Positions 1,415 to 10,405 of a DNA stretch of 10,900 nt are shown in pieces. Origin of the DNA: a virus (taxonomy: Duplodnaviria; Heunggongvirae; Uroviricota; Caudoviricetes); IMG/VR virus record IMGVR_UViG_2579778968_000008; one strand, given 5' to 3'. Numbering within the stretch: the first letter of the stretch is position 1; every line of letters starts with the position of its first letter. The notes beneath the pieces are model-generated. The model saw nothing but the letters and a program-made list of their open reading frames with translations, did not search any database and was not told the origin of the DNA. A program made the position numbers and the translations under genes.

Positions 1415-2296
1415 ATGAGTAAGTTATTTAAGCTCAAAGAATGGCTGACGTTATCGGAAGCCTCAGAGAGGCTATCAGTATTCTTAGGTGAAAAGGTTTC
1501 TGTTGCTGATTGTTTGCAGCTGGCATTGGATAAGCACATAACCATTTCAGCAATTTTTAACGAGAGCCAGCACGCTATCCATGCGAAGGTAATCACAACG
1601 ACCCAACGTAAGCAGTTTTCTAAATTCATTATCCGGACAACAGAGGATGGGGCCTATATTGGCCTTATAGGGGAAGATCGCTTTGTCTCAAACAGTGAAT
1701 TAGATTTTGAGTATGAAGATATTGAAAGGTACGGTGATGTTTTCACGTTGCGTCATGGGATCTATGACCTGCCTATGCTGGGGGCCGAAGAATTGGATGT
1801 CATGCATCAGCTTGATTTGAACGCTGGAAGAGCGCCTCGGGAATTCTGCAATATGGAGGGGCCATTTTTGATAACTCCATATGGCTTGGTGAATATCTTA
1901 AACCAGTTCAATCCTTGGATGTTAAAGACGAATGATAGCGGCTCACCAGAGTATTACGATAAGGTAAAAAACGAGTTCGTAGATTTGAGCCATGAAGGCT
2001 ACCGCGGGTTTCTTTATCCGGCCGATGCTTTGGGCGATTTTGAGCTTGTATTCAGAAGAGAAAACATCGAAAAGTTTGAGCAAGAAAATTCTGGTGATGG
2101 CCAACAATCGCTAAAACTTGATGAGAGCCTGCATGTAATAGGTGCTCTGCTTAACGCCTTAAAAAAAGCTGAACCAGCATCTAAGCGATGGACGCAAGAG
2201 GCGCTAAAGGCGGAGATGATAGATCACGGGGTTAACCTAAGCCCTCGACATCTCGATAAATATTTCTCGGCAGCGAATAAATCTTTTAAATCATAG
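1415..2296 (+). CDS. hypothetical protein, 293 aa, AT-richer cargo gene between int and alpA
   Basis: Uninterrupted ORF with a Shine-Dalgarno-like AAGGTGA just upstream of the ATG; visibly AT-richer than the backbone genes; no motif I recognise (no Walker A, HExxH or nuclease signature). Confidence 0.6.
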   Translation: MSKLFKLKEWLTLSEASERLSVFLGEKVSVADCLQLALDKHITISAIFNESQHAIHAKVITTTQRKQFSKFIIRTTEDGAYIGLIGEDRFVSNSELDFEYEDIERYGDVFTLRHGIYDLPMLGAEELDVMHQLDLNAGRAPREFCNMEGPFLITPYGLVNILNQFNPWMLKTNDSGSPEYYDKVKNEFVDLSHEGYRGFLYPADALGDFELVFRRENIEKFEQENSGDGQQSLKLDESLHVIGALLNALKKAEPASKRWTQEALKAEMIDHGVNLSPRHLDKYFSAANKSFKS

Positions 2297-2405
2297 AGAT
2301 AATTTCGCACCGAAAACCCATTTTTCGCTGCGATGACTTAATCCCCCTCCTGAAGCATGCTTCTTGTAACGACGCAACAGCGTCTACAAAGGAGTTACGA
2401 GAAGC

Positions 2406-2609
2406 ATGGCTACAGACAACATCCCCAACACAGGTTACATCCGCCGCTTTCGCCTGGCTGAATTGCTGGGCGTTAGTGTATCCACCATCGACCGTAAAGT
2501 AAGAAACGGTTCACTACCACGTCCGGTAAAGCTGGGCGAGAAGATTACCGCCTTTGATGCGGTAGAGATTAACAACTGGCTGGCAGAACGTCGGGGAAAG
2601 GTGGCTTGA
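2406..2609 (+). CDS. alpA: AlpA-family phage transcriptional regulator (helix-turn-helix)
   Basis: 67 aa; RLAELLGVSVSTIDRKVRNGSLPRPVKLGEKITAFDAVEINNWLAER matches the AlpA/Vis fold pattern (HTH followed by the PxPVKLG...W motif); AAAGGAG RBS about 10 nt upstream; its stop overlaps the next start (TGATG). Confidence 0.85.
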   Translation: MATDNIPNTGYIRRFRLAELLGVSVSTIDRKVRNGSLPRPVKLGEKITAFDAVEINNWLAERRGKVA

Positions 2610-3040
2610 TGAAAAAGAAAAACCGCCCATTACAGGCGGCTAACTCAGATATTCGCACGTCTGATATTACGCCGACCACCAGCCCGGTACAAGTACCTAG
2701 GCGTACCCCAAAGAAACACCGCGCCCGCGTCTATATGCTGCGTACTGGTATAGAGGGATGGACAGAAAACGACATTCTGCGATATTGCCGCCTTTCATCT
2801 GGAAGGAACTACGCCAGCGAGTTAGAGCGCAGGCTTGATATTCAGCTTGAGCGTATAGACGAAAAGAACCCCGACGGGATAGGGTCACATTTACGCTATC
2901 GCTTTACCGGGCGCGGTGACGTTCTAAAAGTTATTCGGCTTGTGAACCATAACGCCGACGCTGGCGGCTATCAGGGACTTTCTCAGCAGGAAATTGCCGA
3001 CATTCTGAAACTCTACCCGGACGCGTTTAACGCCGCCTAA
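2609..3040 (+). CDS. hypothetical protein (about 143 aa), translationally coupled to alpA
   Basis: ATG at 2609 overlaps the alpA stop codon; basic N-terminus (RRTPKKHRAR); no recognisable catalytic motif. Confidence 0.55.
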   Translation: MKKKNRPLQAANSDIRTSDITPTTSPVQVPRRTPKKHRARVYMLRTGIEGWTENDILRYCRLSSGRNYASELERRLDIQLERIDEKNPDGIGSHLRYRFTGRGDVLKVIRLVNHNADAGGYQGLSQQEIADILKLYPDAFNAA

Positions 3041-3052
3041 CGGAGACTGAAA

Positions 3053-3886
3053 ATGAACATCGAAAAAAGCAGATTAATTTCTGAGGCCGCCCCTCATCTG
3101 AACGCCTATCAGGGCACAATTAACGGTAATGAATTTGCCGCAATTGTCCCGGTTATTCCTGGTCATATCGGTGGGCGTGAAACCAATATTGTTAGCGCAA
3201 AAGCGTTACACAAAGCGTTGGGCGTGGGAAAAGACTTCTCTACATGGATCACTGATCGCATCTCTGAATATGACTTCACCATTGGGCACGATTACTCAGT
3301 CCATAAAACTATTTCCCCAAATCTGGGGAAAAGCCCGAATGGCGCGGCTTACAGCAAGATTAAGCAGTCTGGCAGACCCGGCAAAGACTATCTGTTAAGT
3401 GTCGGAATGGCGAAAGAACTGGCGATGGTCGAACGCACCAAACAGGGCCGCGCTATCCGCCGTTATTTCATCCAGTGCGAGGAAGAATTACAGCGTAGCG
3501 TGCCTGAAATCGCCGCCCGCTATCGTCGCCAGCTAAAAGCCCGTATCAGTGCCGCAAACAACTTTAAGCCAATGTGCGATGCGCTGAATATGGCCCGTGC
3601 CGAGCTGGGTAAAACGACGCAGCAGCGCCACTACAGCAACGAGAGCAACATGATCGCCCGTATCGTGCTGGGTGGCATGACGGCGAAGCAGTGGGCGCAG
3701 GCAAATGGCATTACTGGCGAACCTCGCGACCATATGAACGCAGCACAGCTTGAACACCTCTCCTATCTGGAAAGCACCAATATCACGCTAATTGATATGG
3801 GCATGGAATATGAGCAGCGCAAAGGAGAACTCACCCGCCTGTCGCAACGCTGGCTCACTAAACGTCTGGAGGTAAACCATGCGTAA
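3053..3886 (+). CDS. phage antirepressor-like protein (AntA/AntB-type N-terminal domain)
   Basis: 277 aa; N-terminal segment SAKALHKALGVGKDFSTWITDRISEYDFTIGHDYSV resembles the AntA/AntB antirepressor domain signature (ARELHEFL...F..WI..RI.EY.F..G.DF); GGAGA RBS upstream. Confidence 0.7.
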   Translation: MNIEKSRLISEAAPHLNAYQGTINGNEFAAIVPVIPGHIGGRETNIVSAKALHKALGVGKDFSTWITDRISEYDFTIGHDYSVHKTISPNLGKSPNGAAYSKIKQSGRPGKDYLLSVGMAKELAMVERTKQGRAIRRYFIQCEEELQRSVPEIAARYRRQLKARISAANNFKPMCDALNMARAELGKTTQQRHYSNESNMIARIVLGGMTAKQWAQANGITGEPRDHMNAAQLEHLSYLESTNITLIDMGMEYEQRKGELTRLSQRWLTKRLEVNHA

Positions 3887-4061
3887 CCATAATCCGATGC
3901 CGGGAAGCCGTTACAAGGATTCGCACGGGGCTGTAGTGACCGTACAGCGCGTCGAGCATAACCGAGTGACCTTTTACCGCGAGGGCTATCAGTCGCCATG
4001 TGTTCAGCCTTTGGAGAGATTCGTTAATGAGTTCGTGGAGGTGCGCCGTGATACTGAATGA
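3879..4061 (+). CDS. small protein, 60 aa, possibly DUF4222-like
   Basis: Start overlaps the antirepressor stop (ATGCGTAA); motif RYKDSHGAVVTVQRVEHNRVTFYREGYQSPCVQPLERF is reminiscent of small DUF4222-type proteins found in enterobacterial prophage islands. Confidence 0.5.
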   Translation: MRNHNPMPGSRYKDSHGAVVTVQRVEHNRVTFYREGYQSPCVQPLERFVNEFVEVRRDTE

Positions 4062-4540
4062 ACCTGCCGCCCAGAAAGAAGCCTTTAATCTGGCTAACCT
4101 GTTAACAAATGTTAACCCTTACAACCTTATAAAACCAAAGGTCGCGAACGGCTGTCTGTTATCAATTGTTATGGTTAATGACTTAGCAAAACTTAGCCTG
4201 AACCTCACAAAACCTGACATCCACGCACGGGGAATGACGACAAATGATGACATTTTAAACCAAGAAATAATCACCTCTAAAAAGCTGATTGTGGGGAATA
4301 AATTCCCCCTGCTGGCTGGTGGTATGAACTGGATTGCTACCGTTGTGAACCGTTCCACATCGACTTTCGCGACAAATACGCGTGCGCTGGAAGATTTATT
4401 AGGGGTCGTTACGCGAGAAGGTGAGTATTCGGAGTCCATAAAAAAGGGCTTGCCGACTATCGCCAACACGGTTTATGGTTATAGCGCACCAGCAAAATCT
4501 GGCGCCGGGCGTGGAAACCCGAACACACTAAGGGCGACAC

Positions 4541-4563
4541 AGACGCCGAAAGCGTCTTTTTTT
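4541..4563 (+). terminator. candidate intrinsic terminator or attenuator hairpin (6-bp stem AGACGC/GCGTCT, loop CGAAA, then a run of 7 T)
   Basis: Perfect inverted repeat immediately followed by TTTTTTT on the + strand; lies inside the 314-codon open frame listed in the ORF track. Confidence 0.4.
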
Positions 4564-4730
4564 GTGTCCGATCACTACGCACATCAAATCAGCGGCCTCG
4601 TCCGTACTGTATCTATGGTGGCGTTAGTGGGGCTACGTTCGCGTAGGCCGGTTTCCTTTGTGTCCGGTATTTCCACCCCTGCTAACGTCACCGCCATTTC
4701 AGAGCGTGGAAACTCAGGCGGTGACTCCTT
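4564..4730 (+). ncRNA. candidate structured leader / C4-CI-like antisense immunity RNA with an anti-Shine-Dalgarno loop
   Basis: Three hairpins in 170 nt: 4631-4649 (stem GGCTACG/CGTAGGCC with a UUCG tetraloop); 4648-4667 (CCGG stem whose loop contains TCCTTTGTGT); 4687-4725 (perfect 9-bp stem GTCACCGCC/GGCGGTGAC). The loop TCCTTTGTGT (4654-4663) is a perfect 10-nt reverse complement of ACACAAAGGA (4733-4742), which overlaps the AAGGAGG Shine-Dalgarno of the downstream Icd-like gene. A second partial copy TTTGTGTCC sits at 4561-4569. Confidence 0.35.
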
Positions 4731-4752
4731 AAACACAAAGGAGGCTGCCATA

Positions 4753-4944
4753 ATGGCTACTACCCCTACCCAAAAACCATCATTTATCTGGTTAATCGCA
4801 GCAGTTCGCCGCGATATGCCGACAATTACCGCCAAAATTCACCATATCGCCGCAGAGACTGAGCAGGAAGCCCGCCGCATTCTGGCGCGGGATCACGTTT
4901 GCTTTTTTGCCGGACGTATTCGCACAGGGGGCGCACATGCTTAA
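4753..4944 (+). CDS. Icd-like small protein (host cell division inhibitor Icd-like family)
   Basis: 63 aa starting at ATG 4753, with a strong AAGGAGG RBS 8 nt upstream; MATTPTQKPSFIWLIAAVRRD...ETEQEARRILARDHVCFFAGRIR fits the pattern I recall for Icd-like proteins (F.W...A..R...TE.EARR.LA.D...FA.R). In frame with, and the C-terminal part of, the 314-codon ORF in the track. Confidence 0.55.
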   Translation: MATTPTQKPSFIWLIAAVRRDMPTITAKIHHIAAETEQEARRILARDHVCFFAGRIRTGGAHA

Positions 4945-5116
4945 TTACTTCCGTGTTGCAGGATGCGCCACCGCCCGGAGCGGCGAATTAGTCGAGTTCG
5001 TTTATATCGTTGACGCCCGCAGCGCGATCAGCGCCAAAGCTGAGGCGCTAAATCAGGCCAGAAATGAACGCCTTTCCCACATCCAGATTACCCGCGTTCG
5101 TGAGGTGGCGGCATGA
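4937..5116 (+). CDS. hypothetical small protein (about 59 aa)
   Basis: ATG at 4937 overlaps the Icd-like stop (ATGCTTAA); its stop overlaps the next start (ATGA at 5113); first member of a coupled gene chain. Confidence 0.45.
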   Translation: MLNYFRVAGCATARSGELVEFVYIVDARSAISAKAEALNQARNERLSHIQITRVREVAA

Positions 5117-5427
5117 GCATGTATGACGATTTAGTGTCCTGCAAATTTGATGGTTGTACACCTGATGATCTGAACGGAATTGAGAGCTGCGCCAGTGATG
5201 CCGTGGATGATTTAATGCTGGGCGTAAGTGCCATTGGTAGCCTCATGTTCTGGGCGGCTGGTAGCGATGGCTACCCGGAGGAAAGCGCTAAGGCTGATAT
5301 GTACAGATTAGGCGCAATGCTGGGACATATCGGAGAAGTTGCGCGGGCGCTGAACGATAGCGCTGCAAACGCCGCATTCTTGCGCTCAATCAGTGAAAAA
5401 GAAGCCAAAGGGAGGGCGGGCAAATGA
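5113..5427 (+). CDS. hypothetical protein, 104 aa
   Basis: ATGA start/stop overlap on both sides; GC-rich backbone composition. Confidence 0.6.
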   Translation: MSMYDDLVSCKFDGCTPDDLNGIESCASDAVDDLMLGVSAIGSLMFWAAGSDGYPEESAKADMYRLGAMLGHIGEVARALNDSAANAAFLRSISEKEAKGRAGK

Positions 5428-5687
5428 ACATAACTACCATCTATCGCCACCCGGCAGAGCTGGAAGCCGAAGCGATGTTATCCCGCGAGCAGGCTTACCC
5501 GGATGATTTTACGCTGGCAGACCGAACGGCAGAACGCATGACCCGCGCCCGCAATGGGCTGGCTCACGTTATGACCGAATTAGCCCCGCACATGGACGCA
5601 GAGCAAACAGCAGCCGTCCAGTGCTGGCTGATGAAGGTTTTGGCTATTGTCGATGCCACCCTGATTGATGCGGAGGGCAGCGCATGA
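5424..5687 (+). CDS. hypothetical protein, 87 aa
   Basis: ATGA overlaps with neighbours on both sides; backbone composition. Confidence 0.6.
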   Translation: MNITTIYRHPAELEAEAMLSREQAYPDDFTLADRTAERMTRARNGLAHVMTELAPHMDAEQTAAVQCWLMKVLAIVDATLIDAEGSA

Positions 5688-6310
5688 GCAACGCACCGAC
5701 CATTAAATCGGGAAGTGCCGACTTATTACACGCCGAAGCCACACCGCACGGCGTCAATATCATGACCCGCAATGATGCCGGGGGATATGAGCAGGTTGCT
5801 CTTATCAGCTACGAGAGCGCCGTGAACGGCCTTGACGCCGGAGAGTACGACGATAAGCCAGATATCGGATACGCCATTCATTTTGCCGTTGCTGATGGCG
5901 GGGCGCGTGGCTGGTTCGACTTCACCGCGCAGCATAACGTCACTATGTGGCGCTGGCTGATTGCTGCGACGTTCATTTCTGAGATGAAGCGCGAAAACGG
6001 CACAACCACGGTAACTGAGTCTGACGGCACTTCATCGCAGGTGGCGATTTACTCCAATGGCACGGCGGGGATTGTGGTTTACCCGTTCGCGGAACGTCTG
6101 GCGATGGCTAACAACATGGAGGGCGCAATGGTTGAGCGCTACGGCATTGAGCAGGGAACAGCGAACGCCATTGTTTTTTATCAGGCCATGATCGACACGG
6201 AGCGCGGCGAGTTGACCCCGTTCGGGCGTGAAACGCTTGCTGAACTTCACAACAGCTTTATAGCTGAACTGGATGAAAACGGCTGGCCTGAAATGCCGCT
6301 GGCGCACTGA
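5684..6310 (+). CDS. hypothetical protein, 208 aa
   Basis: ATGA overlap with the upstream gene; long ORF with backbone composition; no recognised motif. Confidence 0.65.
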   Translation: MSNAPTIKSGSADLLHAEATPHGVNIMTRNDAGGYEQVALISYESAVNGLDAGEYDDKPDIGYAIHFAVADGGARGWFDFTAQHNVTMWRWLIAATFISEMKRENGTTTVTESDGTSSQVAIYSNGTAGIVVYPFAERLAMANNMEGAMVERYGIEQGTANAIVFYQAMIDTERGELTPFGRETLAELHNSFIAELDENGWPEMPLAH

Positions 6311-6319
6311 GGGGGCGAC

Positions 6320-6661
6320 ATGATTACTAAAAATTTCCGACTTAATGCGCTGGCGAATAAGTATGCGTCGGCACTGTATAACCACATTACGGCTATCAAT
6401 GGTGGCAATTACTTCATGGTTGACGCGGCAGGCCAGCAAATCCGTGTGGAAATCGTCAATGGAGTAAAAGGCGTTCGCAGCCTGATCGATAGCTACACAC
6501 TGGCAGCCATGAAAGTGTCCTACCCGCAGTGGGAAACCGTGGGGATCGAGATTCTTGATCGTTGCGTCACTAATGACGGATTGACTGACGTAGGGCGTGA
6601 GATATGGCAAAGCATGGTTAAAGACATGGGCGCGACCGTGGCAGGGGGCAACCATGCGTAA
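6320..6661 (+). CDS. hypothetical protein, 113 aa
   Basis: GAGGGGG RBS 5-6 nt upstream of the ATG; stop overlaps the primase start (ATGCGTAA). Confidence 0.6.
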   Translation: MITKNFRLNALANKYASALYNHITAINGGNYFMVDAAGQQIRVEIVNGVKGVRSLIDSYTLAAMKVSYPQWETVGIEILDRCVTNDGLTDVGREIWQSMVKDMGATVAGGNHA

Positions 6662-9095
6662 TATCGACATTATCCGCGAAGTGACCAGTGCCGCCGCCGG
6701 GCGCTGGCCTTATGTGCTGGCTGGATTGTCTATCGACGTGCCTGATTCATCGCGCCGCCATTCTCCATGCCCTGCATGTGGTGGAAAAGACCGTTTCAGA
6801 TTCGACGACAACGGGCGCGGTAGCTTTATCTGCAATCAGTGTGGCGCTGGTGACGGTTTAGACCTGATTAAGAAGGTGAACAACTGCGACACCACAGAAG
6901 CGGCAAGGCTTGCCGCTGATGTGCTGGGTATTGATTACCGGGCAGCGGAAACCGACCCGGTGGCAGCGAGCCATAGAAGAGAGCAACTGGAAGCTGACCG
7001 CCAGCAGCGTGAGCAGGAGCGCCAGAAACAGGCAGCAGAGGATGCAGAGCAGCGAAGGGCTACGTTTGCCCGTCTGTATGCCGGAATGCGCCAGAGTGCC
7101 ACACAGGGAGAATCTGATTACCTGCAATCAAAAGGGCTGACCGGGTTTAACTATCCGGTTATGCCGGATGGTTCGTTATTGCTGGAGCTGGTGGACGAAT
7201 CCGGCGCAGTGGCAGCAGCGCAAACCATTACACCGCAGGGAGAGAAGCGACTCCTGACAGGTTCAGCAAAGCGCGGGGCATATCACGCCGTTAACGCACC
7301 GGAACAGCCGCAGGCGGTGATTATTGCCGAGGGGCTGGCAACCACTTTATCAGTCCACCTGATGCGCCCTGACGCGCTGACAGTGTGCGCCATTGATGCG
7401 GGCAACCTGCTACCCGTTGCCGAAGTGATGCGCCGGAAACACCCGCAGTCGCAAATTATCATTGCCGCAGATAACGACCACCAACAGGACGAACAGGCGA
7501 ACACGGGCAAAGATGCCGCAGAGAAAGCCGCCTTATCCGTGGCTGGCTGGGTGGCGCTGCCGCCGACAGACTACAAAGCCGACTGGGACGACTACCGCCA
7601 GCAAAACGGGCTGGAAGTCGCTACGGCTGCGTTTAACGATTCGATGTACCAGATTCAGGGGGAAGCCGTGAAACCACAACTACAGGCCATTGCGGGCGGT
7701 AAATCCCGCCGTAAAGCCGAAGTCGGAGATATTGCACAAATGGCAGCCAGCCAGAAAGCGCGGTTGCTTTCATCTCGATGGGATATGTTGGCGGTTAACC
7801 CTGATAGTGGCACTGTTTACTGCTACGAATCTGGCGTATGGGAGAAGCTACCAGACAGTGAATTAGAAAGGGTTATGGTGGCAATTTTCGACGAGCACGA
7901 AGCCCACTACACCGAAAAGGGGATTAAATCGGTTGTCGCAACCATGAAGCTGCAAATACCGGTAATTGGTGAGCGGAGCGGGGATTTGATTGGTTTTGAT
8001 AACGGCGTTTATGACCTCGCTACGCAGACGTTTTCCGCCCATTCGCCGGGTAACTGGCTGATGAACCACAATGGGATCACCTACACCCCGCCAGCGCCGG
8101 GGGAAAATATTACCACCAGCGCCCCCAATTTTACCCGTTGGCTGAATCATGCAACGGCTGGCGACCATCATAAGGCCGAGCGTATCAAAGCAGCCTTGTT
8201 TATGGTGCTGGCGAAGCGTCACGACTGGCAGCTATTCATTGAGATAACTGGCGAGGGCGGCAGTGGAAAATCCGTATTCAGCAGCATAGCAACCACGCTG
8301 GCAGGTGAACACAACACCGCCAGCGGTAGCATGATGACGCTGGACACCGCACGGGGACGGGCGCAGTTCGTAGGAAAAAGCCTGATTATTATGCCTGACC
8401 AGACCCGCTATGTTGGAGAGGGTGCGGGGATTAAAGCCATTACGGGCGGCGATCCGGTAGAGATTGATGGGAAATATGAAAAGCAGTTCACAACCGTGAT
8501 AAATGCCGTTGTTATGGCAACCAATAACGAGCCGATGACATTCACGGAGCGAAACGGGGGCATTGCCCGCCGCCGCGTGATATTCCCGTTTAATAACCCG
8601 GTATCAGACGCAGACAAAGACCCGGATTTAACCGCAAAAATCAGGCGAGAAATCCCGGTGATTATCCGCCACCTGCTAACCACCTTTGCCGACCAGAACA
8701 AAGCAAAGGCACTATTACTAGAGCAGCGCGATTCGCAGGAGGCGCTAGAGGTTAAACGCGGCACGGATCCGGTTGTCGATATGTGTGCGGCGCTTTTTTT
8801 CATGAACGAACCCAAAGGCATGATGATGGGCGGAGGTACATGGGCAGGCCAGCCAGAGCCGAGGACGTATCTTTATCATCTTTATCTGGCGTTTATGGAG
8901 TATCACGGTTTGGGTAAACCGCTTTCCGTCAATAAGTTTTCACGCGCCATAAAATCAGCAGCAAAAGAGTACCGAGCCAGCTACCTGACGAGAAGCATTA
9001 ACGGCAGAGCGCAAACCAACGTTGGCTATAACGAGAAGGCTGATGAGTTCATGCCACGCGCTTACGGTGTGGAGAGCGGGCAGAGTGATGATTGA
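6654..9095 (+). CDS. primase-helicase (P4 alpha-like: zinc-ribbon primase N-terminus, Toprim-like region, P-loop NTPase C-terminus)
   Basis: Cys-rich zinc-binding motif CPACGGKDRFRFDDNGRGSFICNQCG near the N-terminus; acidic Toprim-like segment (IIIAADNDHQQDEQANTGKDAAEKA); Walker A GEGGSGKS followed by hydrophobic-Asp Walker B-like segments. I prefer the ATG at 6654 (MRNIDIIREV) over the track start at 6597, because it overlaps the upstream stop in a coupling arrangement. Confidence 0.9.
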   Translation: MRNIDIIREVTSAAAGRWPYVLAGLSIDVPDSSRRHSPCPACGGKDRFRFDDNGRGSFICNQCGAGDGLDLIKKVNNCDTTEAARLAADVLGIDYRAAETDPVAASHRREQLEADRQQREQERQKQAAEDAEQRRATFARLYAGMRQSATQGESDYLQSKGLTGFNYPVMPDGSLLLELVDESGAVAAAQTITPQGEKRLLTGSAKRGAYHAVNAPEQPQAVIIAEGLATTLSVHLMRPDALTVCAIDAGNLLPVAEVMRRKHPQSQIIIAADNDHQQDEQANTGKDAAEKAALSVAGWVALPPTDYKADWDDYRQQNGLEVATAAFNDSMYQIQGEAVKPQLQAIAGGKSRRKAEVGDIAQMAASQKARLLSSRWDMLAVNPDSGTVYCYESGVWEKLPDSELERVMVAIFDEHEAHYTEKGIKSVVATMKLQIPVIGERSGDLIGFDNGVYDLATQTFSAHSPGNWLMNHNGITYTPPAPGENITTSAPNFTRWLNHATAGDHHKAERIKAALFMVLAKRHDWQLFIEITGEGGSGKSVFSSIATTLAGEHNTASGSMMTLDTARGRAQFVGKSLIIMPDQTRYVGEGAGIKAITGGDPVEIDGKYEKQFTTVINAVVMATNNEPMTFTERNGGIARRRVIFPFNNPVSDADKDPDLTAKIRREIPVIIRHLLTTFADQNKAKALLLEQRDSQEALEVKRGTDPVVDMCAALFFMNEPKGMMMGGGTWAGQPEPRTYLYHLYLAFMEYHGLGKPLSVNKFSRAIKSAAKEYRASYLTRSINGRAQTNVGYNEKADEFMPRAYGVESGQSDD

Positions 9096-9560: not shown

Positions 9561-9734
9561 ATGGCTATTTCAGTAAAGCCGGTATTGATAAGTGAGAAGC
9601 AAATGGAAGCGATAAAGAAAATTCAGGAGGAGCAGCGTAAAAAATCAGAGGTAGGAGTTGCGCCAACGATCCACGAAATTGCTCGGGGATTAATGGATAA
9701 GGCGCTGGCCTCACTGGCAAGCGAGGGCGCGTAA
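9561..9734 (+). CDS. small protein (57 aa), possible ribbon-helix-helix DNA-binding protein
   Basis: ATG at 9561 with AAGGGG RBS (the track's longer 9534 start would need TTG). N-terminus VKPVLISEKQMEAIKKI has the beta-strand-then-helix pattern of RHH (CopG/Arc-like) proteins; stop overlaps the start of the next gene (TAATG). Confidence 0.5.
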   Translation: MAISVKPVLISEKQMEAIKKIQEEQRKKSEVGVAPTIHEIARGLMDKALASLASEGA

Positions 9735-10405
9735 TGGGCGCCATTCACCAGATATATGAGCATGAAATGTTCTATAACTGGATAGGTGATGGTAAACGAT
9801 GTGTAGCATTCCACGAAGCGGGACATGCAGTAGCTGCATGGCTTATTCGCTTAGATATACAGGTTATCGCCGTTATGGATGAATACGGTTACGTTGCTGG
9901 CGAACATGTACATGAGGCCAAGTGTTTGGGTGTTGTTAAACACAGCATAATTCACAGCCACGATCTAGGGCGTTTGCGGGATAGTAAATCTGGTGTAGTT
10001 GGGCAGAATGGTAAAGTTATCCCTTTCATACGTTACTATGCGGATGGTATAAAGCGCGATGCAAAAAAGGCCGCTTTTGTATCCCTCGCCGGACCAGTAA
10101 GCGAAGCCCTTTACGAAAACAACGATATTTTCAACAAAAAGTATTCGCTACCTCATCGCTATGACATGGCTAACGTAAATGACATGCTCGATTTAATCTG
10201 CGCTACAGATAAGCAAATTAACAGGGAGTTAATGCTTTCTAAACTCGTTGAAAAGACCAAAGCCCTCATGGCTCAATACTGGTATGAAGTAGAAAAAATA
10301 GCGCATTTGCTTGAACGGGATAGCATTGTGAATGGTCGAAATGTTAGCTCGTTAATTGGCATCAACGTCATAGACCGGGCAACGCCATTTTTGCTGGTGG
10401 AATAA
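9734..10405 (+). CDS. standalone HExxH zinc metallopeptidase (FtsH-like HEAGHA motif, no ATPase domain)
   Basis: 223 aa; motif VAFHEAGHAVAAW at residues 24-36 closely resembles the FtsH/M41 active-site context (AYHEAGHA); no Walker A/B motifs; AT-richer than the backbone; translationally coupled to the small upstream gene. Confidence 0.65.
   Translation: MGAIHQIYEHEMFYNWIGDGKRCVAFHEAGHAVAAWLIRLDIQVIAVMDEYGYVAGEHVHEAKCLGVVKHSIIHSHDLGRLRDSKSGVVGQNGKVIPFIRYYADGIKRDAKKAAFVSLAGPVSEALYENNDIFNKKYSLPHRYDMANVNDMLDLICATDKQINRELMLSKLVEKTKALMAQYWYEVEKIAHLLERDSIVNGRNVSSLIGINVIDRATPFLLVE

Follow-up and report, generated by a model that had tools for sequence, protein, structure and literature searches.

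The 10,900-nucleotide (nt) stretch of DNA analysed here (the window; IMG/VR record IMGVR_UViG_2579778968_000008, Caudoviricetes) very probably comes from a satellite-type island of about 13 kb, whose regulatory core is the region 3053-4944; in this core, a Bro zone is joined to an RNA immunity switch of the type found in satellite phage P4. In this switch, an IsrK-like RNA with its own terminator, a C4 antisense RNA and the target sites of the latter precede a gene for an Icd-like protein and an operon with a P4-family primase-helicase, and the entire RNA region lies within a long open reading frame (ORF) resembling eta of P4. This layout is the published "Bro zone plus immunity RNAs" of Gram-negative phage-inducible chromosomal islands (PICIs), and the element is an ordinary, previously uncharacterised member of that group. 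The region had originally been predicted to be a permuted version of the immI module of phage P1. The main value of the present analysis is the corrected reading, namely that of a P4-type on/off switch of a satellite island and not of a rearranged P1 operon. Current understanding is not overturned by any of these results.

A chromosomal segment 100% identical to the window is present in Escherichia coli strain E7 (NZ_CP104523) and in three other poultry isolates. According to the E7 annotation, the island is inserted between yicC and yicG, and its genes follow, in RefSeq, the order int, a 293-amino-acid (aa) ORF, alpA, a PM1773-family gene, an AntA-family gene, DUF4222 and a long "Icd-like" coding sequence (CDS), after which come five small ORFs, the P4-family primase and a few cargo genes including PerC. 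Neither virion nor lysis genes are found among the island genes in the RefSeq annotation, and no packaging-redirection or late module is recognisable among them in that annotation or in domain scans. Such a gene content is the signature of a Gram-negative PICI or a P4-related satellite (PMC6092414, PMC11773190, PMC10111431). It places the element with the helper-dependent type of island, the helper dependence itself being a prediction.

A predicted antisense RNA switch in front of the primase operon

The original prediction had recognised an AntA/AntB-like ORF, a small gene coupled to it and an Icd-like gene, and all three identifications were borne out by family models (Table 1). Between the second and the third it had placed a structured leader (4062-4752). 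The structure is real, yet the leader is not anonymous: it contains matches to the Rfam models isrK and C4 (gathering scores 50 and 45, respectively) together with the target sites of the antisense RNA, and a long conserved ORF, in frame with icd, extends over all of it. The C4 RNA adopts the three-helix shape of its family, with a minimum free energy fold of -38.9 kcal/mol. Its single-stranded a' segment is the exact complement of two copies of the 7-nt motif GTGGAAA, one of which (a1) is in a hairpin loop of the IsrK-like RNA and the other (a2) lies between C4 and the Icd-like gene. Its b' loop is complementary to b2, which overlaps the Shine-Dalgarno sequence AAGGAGG (4738-4744) of the Icd-like gene and is separated by 10 nt from the ATG at 4753. 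This spacing is equal in the window, P1 and P4 (11 in each by the count of the tool). As a control, the complementarity script recovered the annotated a2 and b2 sites of P1, in which the annotated order is promoter P1c4, a1, b1, c4, a2, b2 and icd. The parts found in the window thus make up, as far as can be predicted, a complete antisense switch in the native P1/P4 order.

A putative promoter precedes the RNAs, with a predicted transcription start near 4486. Its hexamers TTGCCG/TATGGT align column for column with the annotated -35/-10 elements of the P1 promoter P1c4/P51b, and also with a promoter-like TTGCCT/TATAGT 5' of the isrK-like element of P4; the -35 hexamer is conserved in most of the aligned related loci. 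The alignment fixes the position of this promoter, and from it we infer its activity.

The Icd-like ORF is the first translated gene after the RNA switch. Its product shows 41% identity to the P4 ORF situated just after the CI RNA and 30% identity to P1 Icd (E 6e-8), and in the obsolete "cI protein" CDS of P4 the RNA is directly followed by an Icd-like stretch (E 7.8e-21). A 59-aa ORF overlaps the stop codon of icd and opens a tightly packed operon that is presumed to be the regulated cargo of the switch. The synteny of this operon is conserved in 18 loci.

Covariation of the antisense RNA with its targets

The comparison rests on 18 related loci from different Enterobacterales species, collected with the Icd-like protein as probe, in which a backbone of alpA, PM1773, a variable slot, isrK, C4, icd and, further on, the primase is conserved. 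Directly 5' of the icd homolog, both isrK and C4 are present in 16 of these 18 loci and C4 alone in one more; the two Rfam models also match P4, P1 and D6. The b' loop takes 16 distinct forms in the 17 elements compared (the window, 13 islands, P1, D6 and P4), and each loop matches its own b2: the exact b'-b2 complement has a mean length of 8.5 nt within an element, as against 2.5 nt between different elements. In every one of the 17, the a' segment, of which there are about eight sequence classes, matches both a1 and a2 over exactly 7 nt. This three-way covariation fits a working antisense RNA with element-specific "immunity types".

Units of isrK and C4 are also carried by lambdoid phages (mEp460, Stx2 phages, ST64B). 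In mEp460 (locus L003, 2897-3085) the unit is embedded in a long ORF annotated as an antirepressor/Rha-family protein, between cII-like and replication genes, and the same holds for the Stx2 phages and ST64B. The a' segment of the mEp460 C4 is identical to that of the window, and its b' differs.

The hypervariable b' loop and its targets might be taken for a barcode that matches the island to its helper, such that an IsrK-like RNA of the helper with matching a1/b1 sites would soak up the C4 of the island and thereby switch on its replication. If true, this would mean that the island senses its helper at the RNA level, whether in addition to AlpA or in its place. This idea is unsupported because no phage with a matching b' was found among the phages and viral contigs scanned, and we regard it as highly improbable. 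A scan of viral contigs for the a/b specificity of the window (GTGGAAA, 3-30 nt, ACACAAAGG) returned mostly chance matches in unrelated contigs and just one island-like contig (L056), and is uninformative.

Table 1. Features of the regulatory region and the adjoining operons, in window coordinates
Feature	Position	Strand	Evidence and remarks
alpA (AlpA/Vis-family regulator-excisionase)	2406..2609	+	Pfam Phage_AlpA, E 1.9e-8; heads the upstream operon
PM1773-family protein, 143 aa	2609..3040	+	RefSeq name; conserved partner of alpA
AntA-domain protein, 277 aa	3053..3886	+	Pfam AntA PF08346, E 1.7e-21, aa 47-129
DUF4222 gene, 60 aa	3879..4061	+	Pfam DUF4222, E 1.4e-22
Eta-like long ORF	4027..4944	+	In frame with the Icd-like gene; spans promoter, IsrK, C4 and a2/b2
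Putative promoter of the RNA unit	4450..4479	+	-35 TTGCCG 4450-4455, 18-nt spacer, -10 TATGGT 4474-4479
c4-a1b1 match	4473-4525		Rfam, 38.9 bits, below the gathering score of 46.7
IsrK-like RNA	4486..4562	+	Rfam isrK, 71.2 bits, E 5e-14; corresponds to P4 seqA and the P1 a1/b1 region
a1 site GTGGAAA	4511-4517		Located in the loop of the second hairpin of IsrK; complementary to C4 a' over 7 nt
b1 site, imperfect	~4523-4533		See text
Intrinsic terminator of IsrK	4541-4562		
C4 antisense RNA	4611..4698	+	Rfam C4, 81.1 bits, E 4e-15; corresponds to P4 CI RNA
C4 b' loop TCCTTTGTGT	4654-4663		Complementary to b2
C4 a' segment TTTCCAC, single-stranded	4670-4676		Exact complement of a1 and a2
a2 site GTGGAAA	4706-4712	+	Exact complement of C4 a'
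b2 site ACACAAAGGA	4733-4742	+	Exact complement of C4 b'
Icd-like / Kil-position ORF, 63 aa	4753..4944	+	NCBIfam phage_ICD_like NF033153, E 1.4e-20
Downstream operon	4937..9095	+	Tightly packed, overlapping stop/start codons
Downstream ORFs	4937-5116, 5113-5427, 5424-5687, 5684-6310, 6320-6661	+	
P4-family primase-helicase	6654-9095	+	Zn_Ribbon_Prim, Toprim_3, D5_N, DUF5906, Pox_D5

A long open frame running through the RNAs

The icd frame is open from position 3970, far 5' of the Icd-like gene, with candidate starts at GTG 4000, ATG 4027 and GTG 4048 (the choice of RefSeq), all three of which lie inside the 3' end of DUF4222; ATG 4027 is preceded by the Shine-Dalgarno sequence GGAGAG. Between 4062 and 4752 this frame has no stop codon, as against 15 and 16 in the other two, and none of 2000 shuffled versions of this segment was stop-free. 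Of the 17 island loci in which both RNAs were located, 14 keep the frame open across them, as does P4; overall it is open in 15 of 19 island loci (the window included) and closed in P1, in D6 and in four island loci. In the 15 open loci and in P4, the stop-free stretch measures 450-970 nt and includes an AT-rich segment, with 4-16 stops in the other frames, and the first start codon of the long ORF regularly falls in the end of whichever gene is upstream. The Pfam model Phage_ASH (E 3.3e-23) matches aa 144-243 of the RefSeq CDS, i.e., nt 4477-4776, which is exactly the IsrK-C4-a2/b2 segment, and it matches the P4 ORF as well (locus L022, 8584-8168). The N-terminal part, on the other hand, is a mosaic that is poorly conserved between loci; the open frame thus probably matters more than the protein sequence at the N terminus. 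The 298-aa CDS of RefSeq was at first read as an overcall, a reading that was withdrawn after consideration of the P4 eta literature and of the ORF-conservation tests.

According to the account of P4 given in PMC10111431 (citing Forti 1999), the long ORF eta encloses CI and seqA as well as a constitutive promoter, and Kil is its short in-frame form. The same account has eta translated solely from the upstream late promoter, in coupling with the alpA homolog, and has its translation prevent termination, so that it is required for read-through.

The names given to these ORFs differ from one database to the next. In RefSeq, the long ORF goes under "Icd-like" or "ash family protein", depending on the genome, and the PHROG families matching the Icd-like part are labelled "transcriptional repressor". 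The last label was possibly inherited, we presume, from the obsolete "cI protein" CDS of P4. "Icd-like protein", "ash family protein" and "transcriptional repressor" are all names for one overlapping RNA-and-ORF device.

The AT-rich segment (4100-4300; 38.5% GC) lies inside the eta-like ORF, 5' of the RNA promoter. The 16-nt motif CTGTTAACAAATGTTA has a second copy, CTGTTATCAATTGTTA, 57 nt further on (4099-4171), with inverted-repeat arms that overlap, and this repeat could be a candidate protein-binding site. Two of the related loci (L010 and L014) have the translated block LL.NV.P.NLIKP..ANG.LLSIVMV in common with the window, a third (L015) has part of it, and it is absent from most others.

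An exchangeable slot upstream of the switch

The position between the PM1773-family gene and DUF4222, occupied in the window by the AntA-domain gene, is a variable slot. Nine of the 18 related loci have an AntA homolog there, one of these together with a Bro-N protein; five have a 195-aa Bro-N protein alone (checked against Pfam in L006, E 3.9e-16); one (L008) has a Rha-like protein, whose match (E 8e-6) is under the Pfam cut-off; and three have no such gene. The differing cassettes begin with the same 15 residues (M.IEKSR..SEAAP) and overlap the next gene at their C-terminal end in the same way, which points to exchange of cassettes at fixed junctions. In the window, this overlap amounts to 8 nt between the AntA stop and the DUF4222 start (ATGCGTAA), and the 3' end of DUF4222 is in turn overlapped by the start of the eta-like ORF. 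At a coverage of at least 80%, the AntA-DUF4222 cassette occurs in 615 E. coli genomes, but the isrK-C4-icd version of the window in only 126. These counts, which are of genomes and not of pairings compared locus by locus, suggest that the slot cassette and the RNA specificity combine independently. By this distribution, the AntA protein is exchangeable cargo of the Bro network, and the AntA/Bro-N/Rha slot offers a defined place in which to seek helper-specific effectors. The DUF4222 gene too appears to move between the two operons, since in four related islands (L018-L021) its homolog is downstream of icd, just 5' of the primase (L019, 8330-8482; L020, 8596-8727).

The AntA gene is situated upstream of the whole RNA unit, promoter and C4 targets included, and no C4-complementary site was found at the start of AntA or of DUF4222. 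Its product also matches PHROG families named "anti-repressor Ant"; "antirepressor" is, for this protein, an annotation label and not an experimentally established function. The one AntA-domain protein for which we found experimental data is AriS of Listeria, in which AntA, Bro-N and pRha alternate as N-terminal domains, and the AntA domain lowers phage gene transcription (PMC9043618). AriS itself is an SOS inhibitor, not an antirepressor (PMC9043618). A sequence search of the PDB with the AntA protein gave no match. Its AlphaFold2 (AF2) model, built from a shallow alignment, is of low confidence (pLDDT 61, pTM 0.38); the best PDB match of the model is the DNA-binding protein DdrC (E 4e-5), with TM-scores of 0.31-0.35, and there are weak matches to winged-helix/APSES-type domains. 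The model thus gives a hint of DNA binding.

The original prediction had assigned this protein to the role of the ant component of P1 immI, an assignment that does not hold. A distant homology to P1 Ant1 was considered on the strength of a BLASTP match (22% identity, E 0.002 for the single pair), but the hhalign probability is 0.9%, and the Pfam domains differ, the window protein having only AntA and P1 Ant1 only ANT/KilAC. The homology is accordingly regarded as unsupported by these comparisons.

The C-terminal half of the AntA protein has no Pfam family. Residues 165-267 give a partial match to the PADLOC candidate-defence profile PDC-S22 (E 6e-12), and the same half matches a hypothetical protein of the P22-like phage SPN9CC whose gene is flanked by those for lysis and terminase. 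Edwardsiella phage EPP-1 encodes a homolog that covers the full length (66% identity).

Relationship to P4, P1 and other elements

Judged by sequence and layout together, the closest relative of the region is satellite phage P4, not P1. The P4 region consists of PLE, seqA, CI RNA, seqC, nested eta/kil, epsilon and the alpha primase, with vis/orf88 upstream. The Rfam models recover seqA (isrK, 60.8 bits) and CI (C4, 74.9 bits) in the same order as in the window, and the logic of the a'/b' targets, the b2-to-ATG spacing and the Icd-like ORF after the RNA are shared. So are the long in-frame ORF over the RNAs, which starts in the end of the upstream gene, the AlpA/Vis homolog upstream and the P4-family primase downstream. 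The window differs from P4 in its b' specificity, in the genes between icd and the primase, and in the insertion of PM1773, AntA and DUF4222 between alpA and the eta-like ORF.

The likeness to the immI region of P1/P7 extends over the position of the promoter, a1/b1, C4 (P1 c4 scores 68.8 bits with the Rfam model), a2/b2 over the ribosome-binding site of icd, and the Icd-family ORF, all with near-identical spacing. Hence, the proposed resemblance to P1 immI stands for its front half, which is homologous, and fails for what follows: no ant gene is coupled downstream of icd in the window, where the replication operon with the primase is present instead. Nor can the order be called permuted, as the order from the RNA to icd is the one native to P1 and P4. 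Further differences are the eta-like long ORF, which sets the window apart from both P1 and D6, and the domain of the AntA protein, which is unlike the ANT/KilAC domain of P1 Ant1/2.

Among chromosomal islands, Gram-negative PICIs have a four-zone layout, of which the "Bro zone" comprises domain-swapping Bro-network proteins together with C4/isrK RNAs (PMC10111431); the members of the network include ANT, AntA, Bro-N, Phage_ASH, Phage_pRha and others (PMC10111431). Islands such as EcCICFT073 and EcCIMP1 (PMC6092414, PMC11773190) resemble the present one in the succession of int plus alpA, Bro zone and primase zone, in a PerC-family gene, in lacking virion genes and in their size range of about 10-17 kb. 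The present island, known here from its genes, differs from other E. coli PICIs in having its own insertion site (yicC/yicG) and its own cargo. In a recent catalogue of Enterobacter satellites, such islands are likewise listed with Icd alongside AntA, BRO or Rha genes (PMC13612085), and an "IsrK-C4 immunity system of P4" has been described (PMC3632133). The isrK-orf45-anrP region of the Salmonella prophage Gifsy-1 (PMC4825925) is comparable to the window in having an IsrK with its own terminator and a processed RNA of about 80 nt in the position of C4. IsrK of Gifsy-1 pairs with the downstream region, controls translation of the next ORF and activates in trans (PMC4825925). In Gifsy-1, the regulated gene is the antirepressor AnrP, which leads on to an antiterminator, whereas in the window it would be the Icd-like ORF with the primase operon.

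Proposed mechanism and alternative readings

The foregoing comparisons suggest the following scheme. The promoter within the eta-like ORF would transcribe IsrK, C4 and the sequence beyond them. Many of the transcripts would stop at the IsrK terminator, and C4 would be excised from those that read through, as can be expected from RNase P processing in P1 and P4. The a'/b' segments of C4 would then pair with a2/b2 over the ribosome-binding site of the Icd-like gene, and also with a1/b1 in IsrK. This pairing is likely to block translation of the Icd-like ORF, and polar or premature termination would silence the primase operon; with its replication operon silenced, the integrated island would be kept quiet. 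Upon activation of the alpA operon, which in PICIs is brought about by the helper phage, ribosomes would run through the closely spaced alpA, PM1773, AntA and DUF4222 genes and on into the eta-like ORF. By analogy with P4 eta, their passage across the RNA region would prevent folding, pairing and termination, and so turn the replication genes on. IsrK may also serve as a decoy for C4 in trans, as in Gifsy-1. The AntA protein would be made only from the activated upstream transcript, outside the control of C4. To go by its family and its model, it is most likely a DNA-interacting regulator whose target would be the helper or the island, and possibly a derepressor of the helper.

Several observations speak against this scheme or narrow it. 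The scanned ORFs and the RefSeq annotation of the island lack epsilon (Derepression, PF25738), sid, delta and psu, and because of their absence the details of P4 may not transfer to the window; in a control, P4's own epsilon gave 4e-50 with the Derepression model. A scan of 2200-5200 with a strict sigma-70 consensus found no promoter before IsrK. The b1 site is imperfect, with 5 nt of uninterrupted complementarity to C4, or 9 if a bulge of 2 nt is allowed. The PM1773 and AntA genes are separated by a gap of 12 nt with no overlap, so that the relay of ribosomes from alpA may be broken there. The role proposed for the AntA protein leans on family names and on the low-confidence model mentioned above. 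Finally, no direct repeat of at least 14 nt that could represent att sites was found flanking the island.

Three other interpretations need to be set against this scheme. Two of them concern the AntA protein. The original idea, in its strongest form, would unite C4, the Icd-like gene and AntA in a single derepression module of the permuted immI kind, with the AntA protein inactivating the repressor of a helper phage. The RNA and icd parts of the window are indeed homologous to those of immI, 15 of the 18 related islands have an antirepressor-family gene in the slot, true phages (D6, mEp460 and Stx phages) have C4 units upstream of Ant or Rha genes, and in P4 a helper derepressor, epsilon, belongs to the same operon. 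Yet the AntA gene precedes the RNA promoter and every C4 target, the starts of AntA and DUF4222 bear no C4 site, and the content of the slot varies and can even be empty. The unequal genome counts of cassette and RNA-icd version also suggest independent combination, the homology to P1 Ant1 is unsupported and AriS is not an antirepressor; we therefore consider a permuted immI module unlikely. A considerably better, if still tentative, case can be made for the AntA protein as a sequence-specific DNA-binding regulator, as distinct from a protein-binding antirepressor, that tunes expression of the helper or the island in the manner of the AntA domain of AriS or of CapR of Vibrio PLE. The alternation of AntA, Bro-N and Rha would then reflect differing DNA targets or helpers. 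It agrees with this that AriS-like proteins show the same alternation of three N-terminal domains, with the AntA domain of AriS lowering phage gene transcription (PMC9043618), that CapR is a repressor and the proteins of the Bro network have been called DNA-interactive (PMC10111431), and that the model of the AntA protein finds DdrC and, weakly, winged-helix/APSES-type domains. Against it are the low confidence of that model, TM-scores that do not exceed 0.35, and a C-terminal half whose only match is PDC-S22.

The third interpretation concerns the long ORF, which might be an annotation artefact of conserved RNA sequence, the region being a purely non-coding leader. The Phage_ASH match falls exactly on the isrK-C4 nucleotides, the CI RNA has since taken the place of the old "cI protein" CDS annotated there in P4, and the ORF, mosaic in its N-terminal part, is missing in four related islands, P1 and D6. 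These points are outweighed, in our view, by the stop-free frame in 15 of 19 island loci and in P4, which shuffled sequences almost never reproduce and beside which the other frames have 4-16 stops, by the regular overlap of its first start with the end of the upstream gene, and by the account of P4 eta as translated and needed for read-through (PMC10111431, citing Forti 1999). An artefact thus appears improbable, and we retain the P4-type switch with a translated override as the preferred reading.

On this reading, the PICI field gains a precisely mapped switch, in which promoter, terminator, RNA and targets are located and the specificity differs from one species' island to the next. These mapped parts allow mutation as a means to probe the silencing of the island and its override on activation; ACAGAAAGGA, for example, is a designed mutant version of b2 (ACACAAAGGA) and not a natural sequence.

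Upstream operon and other genes of the island

In the related loci alpA is kept upstream, and in the window it takes the position of P4 orf88/vis. By tblastn, a PM1773-family gene follows it, with stop/start overlap, in 16 of the 18 loci. The PM1773-family protein has no match in Pfam, PADLOC or PHROG, and despite having no recognised domain it is better conserved than the AntA gene. Control of alpA itself by C4 was also considered, as an 8-nt b2-like match, ACAAAGGA (2386-2393), is located at the alpA Shine-Dalgarno sequence, 12 nt 5' of the ATG. Since this match does not covary in the other loci, L015 with its b' loop identical to that of the window among them, we treat it as a chance effect of the Shine-Dalgarno sequence.

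Directly 3' of the integrase stop codon is an int-alpA RNA (Rfam RF02996; 1329-1394; 69.5 bits, E 3.6e-13), a motif that also comes after int in 11 of the 18 related loci. Between it and alpA lies the 293-aa ORF (1415-2296), which has no match in Pfam, NCBIfam, PHROG or PADLOC. Of the 18 loci, L006 alone has a homolog (62% identity), which suggests that the ORF is variable cargo of the integration zone. When the neighbouring unknown ORFs were run through PADLOC, no match was obtained besides that of the C-terminal half of the AntA protein.

The genes 3' of the primase encode an M41-like peptidase, PerC and a pRiA4b ORF-3 protein. The first of these, a 223-aa protein (9734-10405) preceded by a small overlapping ORF (9534/9561-9734), has no PADLOC match; it has weak homologs in two other loci (28% and 27% identity) and a weak, sub-threshold match to Peptidase_M41. 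It contains the zinc-protease motif FHEAGHAV and could be a regulatory or defence protease.

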